Below are positions 6,039-55,902 of a DNA stretch of 64,000 nucleotides, piece after piece; positions within the stretch are counted from its first letter, which is position 1; every line of letters starts with the position of its first letter. The stretch comes from Rickettsiales bacterium (lineage in GTDB: Bacteria; Pseudomonadota; Alphaproteobacteria; Rickettsiales; JABIRX01). Position numbers and translations under genes: made by a program. The stretch spans positions 14,039 through 78,038 of the forward strand of contig JABJNB010000005.1 of NCBI GenBank assembly GCA_018659145.1, read 5' to 3'. The notes beneath the pieces are model-generated. The model searched no databases. It had not been told where the DNA came from and was given only the letters and a program-made list of their open reading frames with translations.

Positions 6039-6114
6039 ATAGGGGCGCTGTCCTCCCACCCTTGCTAGATTAAACTCGATACTTCTTGGGCAAGAAAAAC
6101 CCGGGGAACTCTAT
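6039..6114. repeat. family A palindromic element, degenerate copy A2
   Basis: The sequence is ataggggcgctgtcctcccaccc...cccggggaactctat. The 5' half matches the A consensus (aggggcg..gt.ctccc.ccc); the 3' terminus is eroded. Confidence 0.5.
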
Positions 6115-15727: not shown

Positions 15728-15872
15728 GTAGGGGGAAGTAAGAACATGCTGTGTCGCAATATAATTGCGACAGAGTTTTTCGATAAAGAGTTTGTAATTA
15801 TATTATGACACAGTCTGCAAGAGTAGAAGGCAAGATAACACCAGTCCAGCCGTGAATGCTTACTTACCCCTC
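15728..15872. repeat. family A-like palindromic element interrupted by a family B mini-element
   Basis: The outer inverted ends are gtagggggaagtaag / cttacttacccctc. Removing the inner 73-bp element (15745..15817) leaves 72 bp, the unit length of family A. Confidence 0.5.
15745..15817. repeat. family B MITE-like element, internally deleted copy B4
   Basis: The sequence is catgctgtgtcgcaatataatt...taattatattatgacacagtctg. Both termini match the 22-bp TIR of copy B1 (caggttgtgtcgcaatataatt) with a few mismatches. Confidence 0.65.
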
Positions 15873-18173: not shown

Positions 18174-18229
18174 TGTAGGGGCGTTGTTCTCCCGCACTTG
18201 GTGGACCGAGCTCCATGCTTTCCTTTACC
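18174..18229. repeat. family A palindromic element, truncated or degenerate copy A3
   Basis: The 5' half, tgtaggggcgttgttctcccgcacttgg, matches the A consensus; the 3' terminus is eroded. A possible termini-only remnant, gtaagggc...gcctac, lies at 18133..18157. Confidence 0.45.
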
Positions 18230-18238
18230 TTATATAGA

Positions 18239-18358
18239 GGGCCTGTCTCAAATCAGAATTGCAAAGATTTTTATTCTTAAGATCTTGGATTCCTTGGTAG
18301 GATTTTTTTAATAGCCAAAGCTATTCAAAATAAATTATACAAAAATAATACATATTTT
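18239..18358. repeat. family C/B composite MITE-like element, 3'-degenerate copy C1
   Basis: gggcctgtctcaaatcagaattgcaaagatttttattcttaagatctt...atagccaaagctattc aligns with 55721..55815. The 3' end has decayed. Confidence 0.6.
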
Positions 18359-21412: not shown

Positions 21413-21486
21413 GCAGGGTGGGGGTTCTCCCACCCGAAAACATACTCGCAATATGTTTAATCACGGTAGGGGAAACCTGCACCTAC
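21413..21486. repeat. family A palindromic element, copy A4
   Basis: The sequence is gcagggtgggggttctcccaccc...ggggaaacctgcacctac, 74 bp. It sits between the fabD stop and the likely real start of the downstream transporter gene. Confidence 0.65.
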
Positions 21487-41025: not shown

Positions 41026-41055
41026 GCATATTAGGTGAGGTCCATATATAATGCC

Positions 41056-41208
41056 AAATCCCATTTATAAATCATAATTTACTAATTTGTTTTATGGCAT
41101 AAATCTTATATAAGAAATTTGAATTAGCTTTGGCTAATCCTTCATTTCTTACACAAAATCTCTAGCCAAAAAATATGCGATTAAATTACGATTTATAAAT
41201 GAGACTTA
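41056..41208. repeat. family D MITE-like element, full copy D1
   Basis: Imperfect 23-bp TIRs aaatcccatttataaatcataat / attacgatttataaatgagactt, about 153 bp. The interior matches the partial copy at 354..431. Confidence 0.55.
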
Positions 41209-41263
41209 GTATAAGAATAGAAATTCTGCAGTTTTTTACAAATTTGACCAATATACAAATTGC

Positions 41264-41336
41264 GCAGGGGCGTGTTCCTCCCCCGCCCTTGGCAGGAGAT
41301 ATCTCGGTGTTTCTGGACGATACAACCTGCCCCTAC
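41264..41336. repeat. family A palindromic element, copy A5
   Basis: gcaggggcgtgttcctcccccgccc...acaacctgcccctac, 73 bp, GC-rich. Confidence 0.7.
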
Positions 41337-41521: not shown

Positions 41522-41683
41522 CAGGTTGTGTCGCAATATAATTGGGAAAGAGTTTTTTGATAAAGATTTTGGATTTTAGGAAATATTTTTGCACGAATAT
41601 CCGAAGCTATGTGAAAAGAATATTTCATAACAATACATGTCTTTAGCAGTAAAGGCTTTCTAATTATATTGCGACACAACCTG
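41522..41683. repeat. family B MITE-like element, full-length copy B1
   Basis: 162 bp with perfect 22-bp terminal inverted repeats caggttgtgtcgcaatataatt / aattatattgcgacacaacctg, checked base by base. It has no coding capacity. Confidence 0.8.
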
Positions 41684-41696
41684 TATAATATGATAC

Positions 41697-47293: not shown

Positions 47294-47341
47294 GGGCCTG
47301 TCGCGAATCAAAATTGCAAAGATTTTAATTTGCGACGGCCC
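47294..47341. repeat. family C mini-palindrome, copy C2
   Basis: gggcctgtcgcgaatcaaaattgcaaagattttaatttgcgacggccc is 48 bp and self-complementary. The same left end is found at 18239 and 55721. It is nested inside a second inverted repeat, acctctgcataa (47260) / ttatgcagaggt (47362). Confidence 0.65.
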
Positions 47342-47434: not shown

Positions 47435-50400
47435 ATGCAGTCATTTTATTTAACTATTCCAGGTAGTAATCAAAAAATTGCCCTTGTTGACATTCATAAA
47501 GAATCCACTCTAGAGATTATTCATCAGAATTTCTTAGCCTATCTTGCTAAAACAAATAAAGAAGTAAGTTTGGAGCTTGTCCTTTCTTACCAAGAGAAAG
47601 TATATAACGCAGAGCTTACTCTAGCACTAGCGCCTATCTTAGAAGAATATTTAACCCTTATTTTCAAACTAGAAGACAATCAAAAAATTAAATCAGGCGA
47701 AGCTGATTTGATTCAAGATATCAGAAAAAAATTCATTCATAAAAAATGCTATAAGAAAACCTTCAAAGGAAGCTTGGAGGATCTCAATTTAAACAACCAA
47801 TTAAAACCATATTTAACAAATTTTAACCAGGTCCAATTTGCACAACTCATCCAAGATGCAATAATAAATGAGGAAATTAATTTACTAAATGATATTGAAC
47901 AATATTGCTTATGGGCGTGTCATAATATTGATGGGAAGCTGAAGCATAAAGATGATATATTATTTAAAATTCCGGAAAAAATAGACTCCAATAATCTCCT
48001 TAAAATTAACGCCCATAATCATAAATTCAAATCTACCTATAATAAAAACAGAGTAGGCTTCGACCATCATGATACCGACCTAAATTATAATCATGCTTTT
48101 ACTGAAACTACTTACTGCCTATATTGCCATAATCGTGGTAAAGACTCATGCTCAAAAGGCTTATATGATAAGGAGGCTAACTTACAAAAATCAGCAACAG
48201 GAGCAAAGCTCAAAGGCTGCCCTTTAGATCAGAAAATTTCCGAGATGAATCTGTTATTTAAAGATCATCGGTCAATAGCTGCTATCGCCGTTGCCATGAT
48301 TGACAACCCCTTACTTCTTCTCACAGGTCATAGAATCTGTAATGACTGTATGAAAGCTTGTATATTTCAAAATCAAGATCCAGTTAACATCCCTCTAATT
48401 GAAACTGGGATATTGGATGATGTTTTAAATTTAGCCTATGGTTTTGAAATTTATTACCTGTTAACCCTATGGAACCCACTAAATTACAAACGCCCTCTTC
48501 CCAAATCAGCAGCTAATAAAAAAGTCTTAATCTGCGGATCCGGACCAGCTGGCATAAGCTTAGCTTACAACCTACTCATGGATGGTCATATTGCAGTTAT
48601 AATTGATGGGTTAAAAATCGAACCAGTCAAAGATGAGATATTTGATAAATTTGGCAATATCATTTTATATCCTGATTGCAAAACTTCGCTTTTTCAAAAT
48701 TTATCAGAACGAATCTCAGAAGGCTTTGGTGGCGTTTCTGAATATGGTATTACAGCACGCTGGAATAAAAACTATCTCAAACTTGCACGCATCATTTTAG
48801 AGCGCAATAGCCATTTTCATCTCTATGGTGGCATCAGATTTGGTAGCCAAATAACCAAAGAGACAGCTTTTGAACTTGGCTTTGATCATATTGCATTTTG
48901 TATGGGCGCGGGATCACCAAATATTATTAACCTTGGAAACAACTTAAGTCCGGGCGTTAGAAAAGCCTCAGACTTTCTAATGACACTACAACTCCTTGGT
49001 AGCTTTGATATTAAATCATTAGTAAACCTGCAAATTAGAATGCCAATTGTGGTAATTGGCGGCGGTTTAACTGCAATTGATACAGCAACTGAAAGCCTGG
49101 CTTATTACCCTATTCAAATCCTTAAATTTAAGGAACAATTGGATTCATTAATGATGGGTGATCACAGGGCTTCACCCCTACAAAATGGCATAAATCATAA
49201 TTCCGTAGGGGCGGGGTCCTCCCGCCCGGAAACACCGGATATATTTGATCAAGGGCGGGATAACCTCGCCCCTACACACAAATCTAAACATAATTCATAC
49301 AAAAATATCACGTCCGAACTTAACCAAGCCGAACTAGAAATATTTGAAGAGTTCCTCGCGCATAGTAAATTATTTGAAGCTGAAATAGAGCAAGCCAAAT
49401 CCCAAAATAGAGCCATCAACTTCCTACCTATTTTAAATGATCTGGGCGGCTCAACAATAATTTATCGTAAAGCTCTAAGAGAATCTCCAGCCTATCGCCT
49501 CAATCACGAGGAAATCATCAAGGCCTTAGAAGAAGGAATTATAATTGCAGAATACACAACTCCAAAATCTGTAATCAAAGATGAATATGGTAAAGCCAAA
49601 GAGATAGAAGTAATACAGAGCAAGCAAAGGCAAATCATGCCAGCTAAGACAATCTTAATTGCGGCTGGAACTAAAGCCAACATCATCATTGCAAACGAGG
49701 ATAGTGATTTTGCGGTTGAGAATAATTATCTAAAATTAGCTAATAACAAAAGTGATATCGCAGATAGATTCTTTTGTTACCAAGATAATCAAAACCACGC
49801 TATCTCAGTTTTTGGAGATATGCATCCATATTATGCTGGTAGTGTTGTCAAAGCCTTGGCATCAAGCAAGAATGGTTATAGTCAGATTAGTCAAATCTTA
49901 TCATTACGGCCAGATAACAAGATTTCTAATTTAGAATTTAAAACTACCTTAGATAATAATCTAATAGCCAAAGTCGTTAAGATTACCAGATTAACTAACA
50001 ATATTATTGAAGTCATCGTGAAAGCAAAACTCGCCAGCGAAGCTTTTGCTCCAGGGCAATTTTATCGCCTGCAAAATTATAGCAAATCTGCTAAGATCAT
50101 AAATGGTAAACGCTTAGATATTGAACCCCTCGCACTTACCGGATCTAATGTAAATCCAGATACCGGGCATATCTCCCTAATTGCCCTTGAGATGGGAGGA
50201 TCATCAAATCTACTAAAATATCTTAAAGAAGATGAAGAAGTTATATTAATGGGACCAACAGGTACACCAACTGAAATCTTAAAAGATAAAACTATATTAC
50301 TAGCTGGAGGAGGACTTGGTAATGCGGTATTATTTTCAATTGGCAAAGCACTCAAACAAAATGGCTGCAAGATTCTATATTTCGCCGGTTATAAGAAAGC

Positions 50401-50914
50401 AACTGATCGATATAAAATTCAAGAAATAGAAAATGTTGCAGATTCTGTGATTTGGTGCTGCGATGAAGCAAATGATTTTAAAGTAAATCGTGAATCAGAT
50501 TTCAAATTCACCGGCAATATAATCGAAGCTATGGTTGCCTATAGTGAAGCAAGGTTAGGCAAAATTAAAATCAAATTAAGTGATGTTGACAGAATAATCG
50601 CAATTGGATCAGACAAAATGATGCATGCTATCGGGAAAGCTCGTCATGGCGCGCTACAGCGATATTTAAATCCTCAGCACGATGCTATTGCTAGCATCAA
50701 TTCACCTATGAATTGTATGATGAAAGAAATTTGCGGACAGTGCTTACAAAAACATATTGATCCCGTAACAAAAAAAGAATATTTTGTCTTTTCATGCTTT
50801 AACCAAGACCAAGATTTAGACAATGTAGATTTTGAGAATTTACAGCAAAGGTTATCCCAAAATTCTCTACAAGAAAAAATGACTAAATTATGGATTAAAG
50901 AGTCTGGAAAATGA
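47435..50914 (+). CDS. fused GltD/NfnB-like and PyrK/NfnA-like iron-sulfur flavoprotein with a long N-terminal extension
   Basis: The Fe-S Cys motifs are CLYCHNRGKDSC, GCPLDQKISE and CNDCMKAC. There are two dinucleotide folds, VLICGSGPAGISLAY and VVIGGGLTAIDTA. The C-terminal ferredoxin-reductase-like module has PGQFYRL, LLAGGGLGNAVL and MNCMMKEICGQC. I moved the start to the ATG at 47435; the track's first 52 codons read through repeats. Confidence 0.7.
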   Translation: MQSFYLTIPGSNQKIALVDIHKESTLEIIHQNFLAYLAKTNKEVSLELVLSYQEKVYNAELTLALAPILEEYLTLIFKLEDNQKIKSGEADLIQDIRKKFIHKKCYKKTFKGSLEDLNLNNQLKPYLTNFNQVQFAQLIQDAIINEEINLLNDIEQYCLWACHNIDGKLKHKDDILFKIPEKIDSNNLLKINAHNHKFKSTYNKNRVGFDHHDTDLNYNHAFTETTYCLYCHNRGKDSCSKGLYDKEANLQKSATGAKLKGCPLDQKISEMNLLFKDHRSIAAIAVAMIDNPLLLLTGHRICNDCMKACIFQNQDPVNIPLIETGILDDVLNLAYGFEIYYLLTLWNPLNYKRPLPKSAANKKVLICGSGPAGISLAYNLLMDGHIAVIIDGLKIEPVKDEIFDKFGNIILYPDCKTSLFQNLSERISEGFGGVSEYGITARWNKNYLKLARIILERNSHFHLYGGIRFGSQITKETAFELGFDHIAFCMGAGSPNIINLGNNLSPGVRKASDFLMTLQLLGSFDIKSLVNLQIRMPIVVIGGGLTAIDTATESLAYYPIQILKFKEQLDSLMMGDHRASPLQNGINHNSVGAGSSRPETPDIFDQGRDNLAPTHKSKHNSYKNITSELNQAELEIFEEFLAHSKLFEAEIEQAKSQNRAINFLPILNDLGGSTIIYRKALRESPAYRLNHEEIIKALEEGIIIAEYTTPKSVIKDEYGKAKEIEVIQSKQRQIMPAKTILIAAGTKANIIIANEDSDFAVENNYLKLANNKSDIADRFFCYQDNQNHAISVFGDMHPYYAGSVVKALASSKNGYSQISQILSLRPDNKISNLEFKTTLDNNLIAKVVKITRLTNNIIEVIVKAKLASEAFAPGQFYRLQNYSKSAKIINGKRLDIEPLALTGSNVNPDTGHISLIALEMGGSSNLLKYLKEDEEVILMGPTGTPTEILKDKTILLAGGGLGNAVLFSIGKALKQNGCKILYFAGYKKATDRYKIQEIENVADSVIWCCDEANDFKVNRESDFKFTGNIIEAMVAYSEARLGKIKIKLSDVDRIIAIGSDKMMHAIGKARHGALQRYLNPQHDAIASINSPMNCMMKEICGQCLQKHIDPVTKKEYFVFSCFNQDQDLDNVDFENLQQRLSQNSLQEKMTKLWIKESGK
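49205..49275. repeat. family A palindromic element, copy A6, inserted in frame inside a CDS
   Basis: gtaggggcggggtcctcccgcccgg...gataacctcgcccctac lies inside the 47435..50914 ORF. It is translated as ...SVGAGSSRPETPDIFDQGRDNLAPT... without interrupting the frame. Confidence 0.75.
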
Positions 50915-52561: not shown

Positions 52562-52618
52562 AATATAATACATGCCTTTAGTGGTAAAGGCTTTCTAATG
52601 ATATTGCGACACAGCCTG
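52562..52618. repeat. family B element, right-end fragment B3
   Basis: aatacatgcctttagtggtaaaggctttctaatgatattgcgacacagcctg matches the right 55 bp or so of B1 and of the 55721 copy. Confidence 0.6.
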
Positions 52619-52699
52619 TCGGGGCAAGCCCAAAATATATTTGCTATAATTACTTATTTAGAATAGGTCTTTGTTCATATAATATTTTAACAATATCTA

Positions 52700-55720: not shown

Positions 55721-55880
55721 GGCCTATCGCGAATCAAAATTGCAAAGATTTTTATTCTTAAGATCTTAAATTTTATGAAATATTTTTGTACAAATAGCCA
55801 AAGCTATTCGAAAAGAATATTTCATAACAATACATGTCTTTAGTGGTAAAGGCTTTCTAATTATATTACGACACAACCTG
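55721..55880. repeat. chimeric MITE-like element with a family C left end and a family B right end
   Basis: The left 50 bp or so, ggcctatcgcgaatcaaaattgcaaagatttttattcttaagatctt, matches C1/C2. The right 110 bp or so, ...gaaaagaatatttcataacaatacatgtctttagtggtaaaggctttctaattatattacgacacaacctg, is near-identical to B1. Confidence 0.75.
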
Positions 55881-55902
55881 TATTCTAAGCCCCTCTTAAA
55901 TA

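Follow-up and report, generated by a model that had tools for sequence, protein, structure and literature searches.

GTAG-tagged repetitive extragenic palindromes (REPs) are G/C-rich imperfect palindromes of 20–40 bp, repeated many times in a genome, in which an unpaired GT[AG]G tetranucleotide directly precedes a short stem-loop on its 5′ side. They make up a superfamily that Di Nocera et al. described in 2013 (PMC3733652), whose members lie mostly downstream of convergent or co-directional genes (PMC3733652). In REPINs, which are REP doublets, the replicating unit is the doublet with its conserved spacer rather than the single REP, and singlets are its remnants. Copies inserted in frame within genes have been documented before, with dimers encoding 20–30 aa and clusters 43–82 aa (PMC3733652), and in-frame insertions also appear in Quentin 2018 (PMC6006769). 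The Rickettsia palindromic elements (RPEs) are elements of 100–150 bp in the genus Rickettsia (PMC1779305), and the intragenic repeats of R. conorii known as RPE-4 and RPE-6 are REPs of the CGTC type (PMC3733652). Earlier surveys of the Rickettsiales lineage found only CGTC-type REPs and few or no tnpA_Y1 genes, the gene family that includes the REP-associated tyrosine transposases (RAYTs). Here we analyze a 64-kb stretch of contig JABJNB010000005.1 (hereafter the window, to which all positions refer), in which a 71-bp palindrome at 49205–49275 lies in frame within a gene for a conserved Fe–S flavoprotein. We show that this palindrome is an inverted dimer of GTAG-tagged REPs, and we argue that it probably belongs to a cluster of three REP units that was acquired through RAYT-type or related REP dynamics and whose translation product is a tolerated, disordered passenger.

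The element, GTAGGGGCGGGGTCCTCCCGCCCGGAAACACCGGATATATTTGATCAAGGGCGGGATAACCTCGCCCCTAC, is a GC-rich palindrome in an AT-rich setting (31–38% GC across the window; the host lineage, which is marine and Rickettsiales-like, has 34% GC). It is laid out as GTAGGGGCGGGGTCCTCCCGCCC-N25-GGGCGGGATAACCTCGCCCCTAC, with GTAG...CTAC at its outer ends. The left unit, GTAGGGGCGGGGTCCTCCCGCCC (49205–49227, + strand), comprises an unpaired GTAG foot and a 7-bp stem, GGGCGGG/CCCGCCC, closed by a 5-nt loop; it folds at −9.7 kcal/mol with its first four nucleotides unpaired and has no mismatch to a 23-nt core that is common to 94 sequence blocks from other genomes (see below). The right unit (49253–49275, − strand; reverse complement GTAGGGGCGAGGTTATCCCGCCC) likewise carries a GTAG foot, shows a single bulged A in its stem, folds at −7.0 kcal/mol and differs from the core at two positions. 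Between them is an AT-rich spacer of 25 nt (49228–49252) that aligns with the similar spacer of another copy, at 21413; the dimer and its spacer are assigned no strand. When folded as single-stranded DNA, the whole 71-nt element forms a single hairpin of −23.2 kcal/mol (z = −5.4), and none of 200 shuffled sequences was equally stable. Because a 7-bp G/C stem follows the unpaired GTAG in each arm (read on the reverse complement for 49253–49275), and because the whole folds as one hairpin, we assign the element to the inverted dimers of GTAG-tagged REPs known as REPINs. A search of the window against Rfam at gathering thresholds returned tRNA only and no family matching the element, and a full-text literature search for the exact REP sequence retrieved only unrelated papers on human promoters.

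The gene that carries the element (47435–50914, + strand) encodes a 1159-aa, PRK06567-like protein in which a GltD/NfnB-like and a PyrK/NfnA-like part are fused, as judged by profile, structure and synteny matches. It matches NCBIfam NF005128 (PRK06567) at E = 8e-218, contains the Pfam domains Pyr_redox_2 and Fer4_20, and has NfnI, PyrK and GltD as its relatives in the PDB. More than 200 invariant alignment columns are kept, and all residues that are invariant in the family are present. Homologs align from the ATG at 47435, which is the likely start codon on the strength of this alignment. The open reading frame (ORF) as called mechanically has TTG 47279 as its start and includes a repeat fragment (47295–47326). 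Since all homologs align from ATG 47435, the 1211-aa gene call of the ENA assemblies probably exceeds the true protein by 52 aa.

Within this protein, the element is translated without a stop as VGAGSSRPETPDIFDQGRDNLAPT (residues 591–614). Alignment with 54 homologs and structure prediction delimit a longer, lineage-specific insert, GDHRASPLQNGINHNSVGAGSSRPETPDIFDQGRDNLAPTHKS, at approximately residues 575–617 (49157–49285, + strand). The stretch between the motifs ESLAYYP and EF..H is 93 residues long here versus 42–51 in all 54 homologs, which sets the length of the insert at 42–44 aa, and the insert has no counterpart in any of them, including a syntenic ortholog with 65% identity. This closest homolog (P0002) comes from a metagenome-assembled genome (MAG) labeled 'Rickettsiales bacterium', and it is a positional ortholog because the gene order pseudouridine synthase–flavoprotein–SAM methyltransferase is shared between the two loci; the 15.7-kb ortholog locus (L001) contains no REP. 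In an AlphaFold2 model of good overall quality (mean pLDDT, 84.9; pTM, 0.88), residues 576–616 have pLDDT values below 50 and no secondary structure and are situated between helices 544–574 and 616–626. The insert is thus predicted to be a disordered loop at the turn between two confident helices of a helical region specific to the family. A preliminary description of this locus had proposed that a palindromic element interrupts the gene in frame and without a stop and had expected a lineage-specific insertion in a loop, both of which agree with our results; its estimate of a peptide of about 24 aa has to be replaced by the 42–44 aa of an insert that corresponds to three REP-like units.

The third of these units lies 23 nt upstream of the dimer (49156–49181, − strand) and reads, as its reverse complement, GTAG-GGGTGA-AGCCCTGTGA-TCACCC, with a 10-nt loop; it appears as a hairpin in the fold of 49155–49285. 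Its orientation is opposite to that of the left REP, so that orientations alternate (−, +, −) along the three units, which are separated by 23 and 25 nt in the manner of a small bacterial interspersed mosaic element. Across the whole window, a GTAG followed by a perfect stem of at least 6 bp occurs five times (1.3 expected), and only two of these five have a G/C stem, namely the third unit and the left arm of the dimer. On account of this rarity, the probability that the two are adjacent by chance is approximately 0.002, and we rejected chance adjacency. The cluster extends over 49156–49275, which is 120 bp or exactly 40 codons and accounts for nearly the entire protein insert. A clean insertion of the 71-bp dimer would not have been in frame, because 71 = 3 × 23 + 2. 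Two of the six reading frames of the dimer are free of stops, and the gene reads one of them. A second REP dimer, inside a RAYT gene of another Rickettsiales genome, is read in the same frame, and the two peptides are 54% identical.

Other copies of the element are present in the window, and their similarity to the genic copy is significant, as had been supposed. When an nhmmer profile is made of the copies at 1483, 21413 and 41264 alone, it recovers 49205–49275 over its full length (E = 4.5e-8); a pattern of the two termini occurs twice in the window and in none of 100 shuffles; and a scan with the 23-nt core finds ten units at seven or fewer mismatches where 0.1 are expected. The best of these is 49205 (+), the only perfect one, followed by 49253 (−) with two mismatches. 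Three further dimers, again without assigned strand, are decayed: a 74-bp copy at 1483–1556, between the stop codons of two convergent ORFs, with five and seven mismatches in its arms; a 74-bp copy at 21413–21486, 4 nt after a stop codon, with four mismatches at 21413 and a compensatory stem variant, GGGTGGG/CCCACCC; and a 73-bp copy at 41264–41336, between convergent ORFs, with five mismatches. Partner units with seven mismatches were found at 1534 (−), 21464 (−) and 18133. Single decayed units occupy 18175–18197 (+ strand; three mismatches) and 6039–6061 (+ strand; four mismatches; downstream of a tRNA gene by 57 nt). Convergent genes flank the copies at 1483, 41264, 18175 and 6039, and that at 21413 lies just after a stop codon, which is the extragenic placement expected of REPs. 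The window therefore holds four doublets of 71–74 bp with alignable spacers and two singlets that look like remnants, with few young copies. The preliminary list of copies stands for the dimers at 1483, 21413 and 41264, whereas the entries at 6039 and 18175 are only half-elements and 15728 is not a copy; the last shares only GTAGGGGG with the element and adjoins a different repeat family.

The same REP is widespread in other genomes. We scanned the GTDB representative genomes with GTAGGGGCGNNGTYCTCCCRC, which returned more than 105 blocks, 105 of which were fetched. The full 23-mer, GTAGGGGCGGGGT[CT]CTCCCGCCC, is present verbatim in 94 of the 105, which by their record titles come from about ten phyla (Chloroflexota, Cyanobacteriota, Patescibacteria/Saccharibacteria, Nitrospirota, Bacillota, Armatimonadota/Abditibacterium, Poribacteria, Omnitrophota, Elusimicrobia, Planctomycetota and Gamma-/Deltaproteobacteria). 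It also occurs in SI075_bin127, a Rickettsiales MAG of marine origin, where 23 blocks contain 60 matches or more. Many of the matches form inverted dimers of 47–173 nt, including forms of 64–74 nt that resemble 49205–49275, and partner arms carry compensatory stem variants (GGGCGAGG/CCTCGCCC, GGGCGCGG/CCGCGCCC and GGGTGGGG/CCCCACCC). Among 86 near-perfect REP units surveyed, two dimers are intragenic, the one at 49205 and the one in the RAYT gene; this rarity fits rare, tolerated accidents.

The blocks of SI075_bin127 (for example, L022, L051 and L067) contain dense arrays of REP dimers of 133–152 nt, some in nested arrangements, at a density far above that of the window, and two types of flank, TGAGATAATCACCCC and CGGATATTGCAACTT, recur in these arrays. 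We considered whether the window might itself be part of SI075_bin127 and rejected this, as it has no nucleotide or protein overlap with the fetched blocks, and the other repeat family of the window is absent there; the two organisms are probably different.

RAYT-like ORFs stand beside or around the motif in six of the blocks that carry the identical REP, from SI075_bin127, Chloroflexia, Anaerolineaceae, a Deltaproteobacteria MAG, Leptolyngbya and Bacillota. A scan of two of these ORFs against NCBIfam NF047646 ('REP-associated tyrosine transposase') gave a match for both, the Rickettsiales ORF at E = 2e-18 and the Chloroflexia ORF at E = 1e-15. The six are 33–43% identical to one another, and a database search returned more than 1,900 relatives, many of them named RayT. 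Strikingly, the 23-nt REP is letter-identical across about ten phyla next to RAYT proteins with only 33–45% identity, although the blocks were found by an exact pattern and this identity is thus no proof of constraint.

RAYTs of TnpA_REP subclass 2.4 are recognized by an HuH motif NH[IFV]H, the motifs WQ and YIxNNP, and REP insertions inside the gene (PMC6006769). In this subclass, which corresponds to group 4 of Bertels, the REP stem begins with three G–C pairs and 'double-foot' forms occur; REPs are inserted in frame in the tnpA gene itself, and the distribution is patchy over many phyla (PMC6006769; PMC5581495). The SI075_bin127 RAYT (L051, 1228–1773) has NHMH, WQ and YIYNNP, and the features of subclass 2.4/group 4 are thereby found in RAYTs of other genomes. 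Its internal REP encodes the peptide VGAGLSRP...ENPTPT. The blocks L009, L036, L042 and L061 were grouped with L051 for a known trait of subclass 2.4. Judged by sequence, the REP arm of the window belongs with the subclass 2.4/group 4 kind. The association with RAYTs is observed in other genomes, and a RAYT is presumably present in this organism as well.

Assembly data support the integrity of the locus. Two independent ENA assemblies both contain the gene, element included, at 99.9% identity, and a Logan contig covers 49111–49737 with no differences and with unique gene sequence on both sides; contigs from other runs join the right half of the element to the downstream gene. The locus was found in eight marine metagenome runs from five studies dated 2014–2022. 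In these eight runs no contig joins the flanks in an empty-site allele, although contigs drop rare variants. The REP is abundant in the same metagenomes, with a summed contig depth of 46–130 at this variant. The RAYT locus of SI075_bin127 (L051:1100–1900) is present with no differences in the same marine samples (runs X1–X3), and the REP beside that gene reaches a summed contig depth of 540–1,725. We had derived a figure of about 25 REP copies for this genome from the depth of 46–130, and we withdrew it: the runs also contain SI075_bin127, whose copies number in the hundreds, and the REP copy number of this genome can therefore not be derived from them.

We propose that a RAYT, an enzyme of the HUH/Y1 type acting in trans, would cut and rejoin REPs as single-stranded hairpins; that the transposase in question would be of the TnpA_REP subclass 2.4/RAYT group 4 type; and that one or more such events may have put the three-unit cluster into the flavoprotein gene. 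The insertion could have persisted because its net length is divisible by three, its frame is free of stops and its site is a turn between two helices. The frame in use, VGAG..RP...G..N.APT, is one of the only two available, and the additional ~40 aa, rich in Gly, Ser, Pro and Asp, would be tolerated as a floppy loop. The peptide most likely has no role and is a tolerated passenger. Taken together, we consider it probable that the insert is a three-unit GTAG-REP/REPIN cluster that arose in frame by RAYT-type or related REP dynamics.

Several observations weigh against this proposal. No RAYT gene was detected in the 64 kb by tblastn with an E. coli RAYT, which served only to give a lead, followed by the RAYT of the Rickettsiales MAG; the sole match was the REP-encoded peptide itself. 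In the other genomes, the NF047646 scores are below the curated cutoff (67 and 58 bits versus 80) and the matches to Pfam Y1_Tnp are weak, probably owing to the RAYTs' own REP inserts. The stem sequence of the third unit differs from that of the dimer, and its assignment draws on anatomy and rarity, not on family-level similarity. A direct repeat of 12/13 nt, TAAA(T)CATAATTC, which is imperfect and has an indel, encloses the dimer together with 9 nt: its upstream copy, TAAATCATAATTC, is at 49191–49203 (+ strand) and its partner, TAAACATAATTC, at 49285–49296. To our knowledge, Y1 transposases do not make target duplications. The downstream copy aligns with the codons K-H-N of the ortholog, and the repeat could be a target duplication, a product of slippage or a chance occurrence. 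Finally, with regard to translation and neutrality, a single metatranscriptome contig covers 48080–48294 of the gene and none crosses the element.

The direct repeat, together with the inverted-repeat ends, is what would be expected if the element were a conventional MITE (miniature inverted-repeat transposable element), mobilized by a DDE transposase that recognizes terminal inverted repeats and duplicates its target. We regard this as very improbable: the right-hand copy of the repeat stands 9 nt from the end of the element, the repeat has an indel, no flanking duplications are evident at the other copies in the window, the ends carry a GTAG foot and each arm folds alone, as in REPs, and elsewhere the gene next to this sequence encodes a RAYT (Y1/HUH) and not a DDE transposase. 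The preliminary description had favored an independent or novel RPE-like family, and membership in the RPEs proper may also be considered, given that the host is Rickettsiales-like by its nearest ortholog, that an in-frame palindromic repeat in a conserved gene is a hallmark of RPEs and is what we observe, and that RPE-4 and RPE-6 are themselves CGTC-type REPs (PMC3733652). Either version is, in our view, very improbable. The element, at 71 bp (73–74 bp in the other copies), is set apart from RPEs of 100–150 bp by its length (PMC1779305) and from RPE-4 and RPE-6 by its tag, GTAG/CTAC instead of CGTC (PMC3733652), and it shares its arm, letter for letter, with a REP that is spread over about ten phyla and linked to RAYT genes, so there is no separate invention to invoke.

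Co-option of the insert would make either the loop functional, for example in binding a partner, or the hairpin active in RNA or DNA, through pausing or mRNA processing. No copy in the window other than the genic one is perfect, those between genes having decayed; the samples of 2014–2022 are fixed for the allele; and the hairpin is very stable. A recent insertion would equally leave a perfect sequence, however, and the peptide is predicted to be disordered and has no counterpart in any homolog; REP inserts in unrelated proteins are documented without evident constraint (PMC3733652). We therefore hold co-option to be unlikely. The very abundance of the REP in the metagenomes (depths of 46–130, and of 540–1,725 by the SI075_bin127 RAYT), with unitigs breaking at the repeat, raises the question of an artefactual join to a high-copy repeat of a co-occurring genome. 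Such a chimera is extremely improbable, because both assemblies and the Logan contig cross the element and no contig joins the flanks without it.

The window contains other repeats. An unrelated, MITE-like family of ~165 bp with terminal inverted repeats of 22–27 nt (CAGGTTGTGTCGCAATATAATT...) is represented at 41522–41686 and 55721–55890 and by partial copies at 52567–52619, 15750–15794, 18240–18291 and 47295–47326, all intergenic. The last lies just upstream of the start of the flavoprotein gene, and the family is absent from the SI075_bin127 blocks. An inverted repeat of 84 nt (351–434 and 41129–41212) is 81% complementary with its arms 40.7 kb apart, and another of 48 nt joins 41051–41098 to 41165–41212; the intergenic region at 41.0–41.7 kb is a patchwork of repeats.

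The locus provides a clean, well-bounded case of a mobile palindrome that has become part of a conserved enzyme. It widens the range of GTAG-REPs and of RAYT group 4 elements to include genomes of marine, Rickettsiales-like bacteria, and it allows a probable class of mobilizing enzyme to be given, as could never be done for the classic RPEs. For annotation, the peptides VGAG..RP and G..N.APT in proteins should be read as a warning that a REP has been translated. In-frame REP insertion was already known, and the current understanding of REPs and of protein evolution is unchanged. A broader idea, which we put forward tentatively and consider rather doubtful, is that a RAYT group 4/GTAG-REP system is active, or was until recently, in streamlined marine bacteria of the Rickettsiales-like kind and adds loops to their enzymes. 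If so, core enzymes would be gaining loops as they do from RPEs in Rickettsia but through a different, identifiable transposase, and the pristine genic copy would be the mark of a recent event. The verbatim REP beside diverged RAYTs would then point to unusually strong constraint on the REP across phyla or to its recent spread between them.

Among known systems, the GTAG-tagged REPs and REPINs (PMC3733652; PMC3116915) are the closest: they share with our element the 5′ GTAG foot beside a short G/C-rich stem-loop, the presence in multiple copies, the inverted dimers with a spacer of 20–100 nt that can fold into one long hairpin, and the location mostly downstream of genes with occasional copies wholly inside ORFs. 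They differ in their setting, as the host here is an AT-rich, marine, Rickettsiales-like bacterium whereas Rickettsia in the 2013 survey had only the CGTC type (PMC3733652), and in that copies in the window are sparse and mostly decayed while the genic site holds three units and encodes ~40 aa. The REPtrons of subclass 2.4/group 4 (PMC6006769; PMC5581495) resemble it in the three G–C pairs that open the stem, in the 'double-foot' GTAG...CTAC and in their patchy spread over many phyla. The difference is that no RAYT lies in the window, the link being seen in other genomes that include another Rickettsiales MAG. RPE-1 to RPE-8, reportedly described by Ogata et al. in 2000 and 2002, are likewise palindromic, are found both between genes and in frame in conserved Rickettsiales genes, and encode lineage-specific peptides that proteins presumably tolerate at their surface. 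Unlike the element described here, which is shared with distant phyla alongside RAYTs, they are restricted to Rickettsia and close relatives and have no assigned transposase. Correia/NEMIS, ERIC and Nezha elements are small, non-autonomous palindromic MITEs that can be co-transcribed with genes or overlap them, and MITEs derive by deletion from DDE insertion sequences and have terminal inverted repeats and target duplications. Our element is like them a small, non-autonomous palindromic repeat, but each of its arms is an autonomous GTAG hairpin, and the enzyme to which it is linked is an HUH/Y1 transposase.

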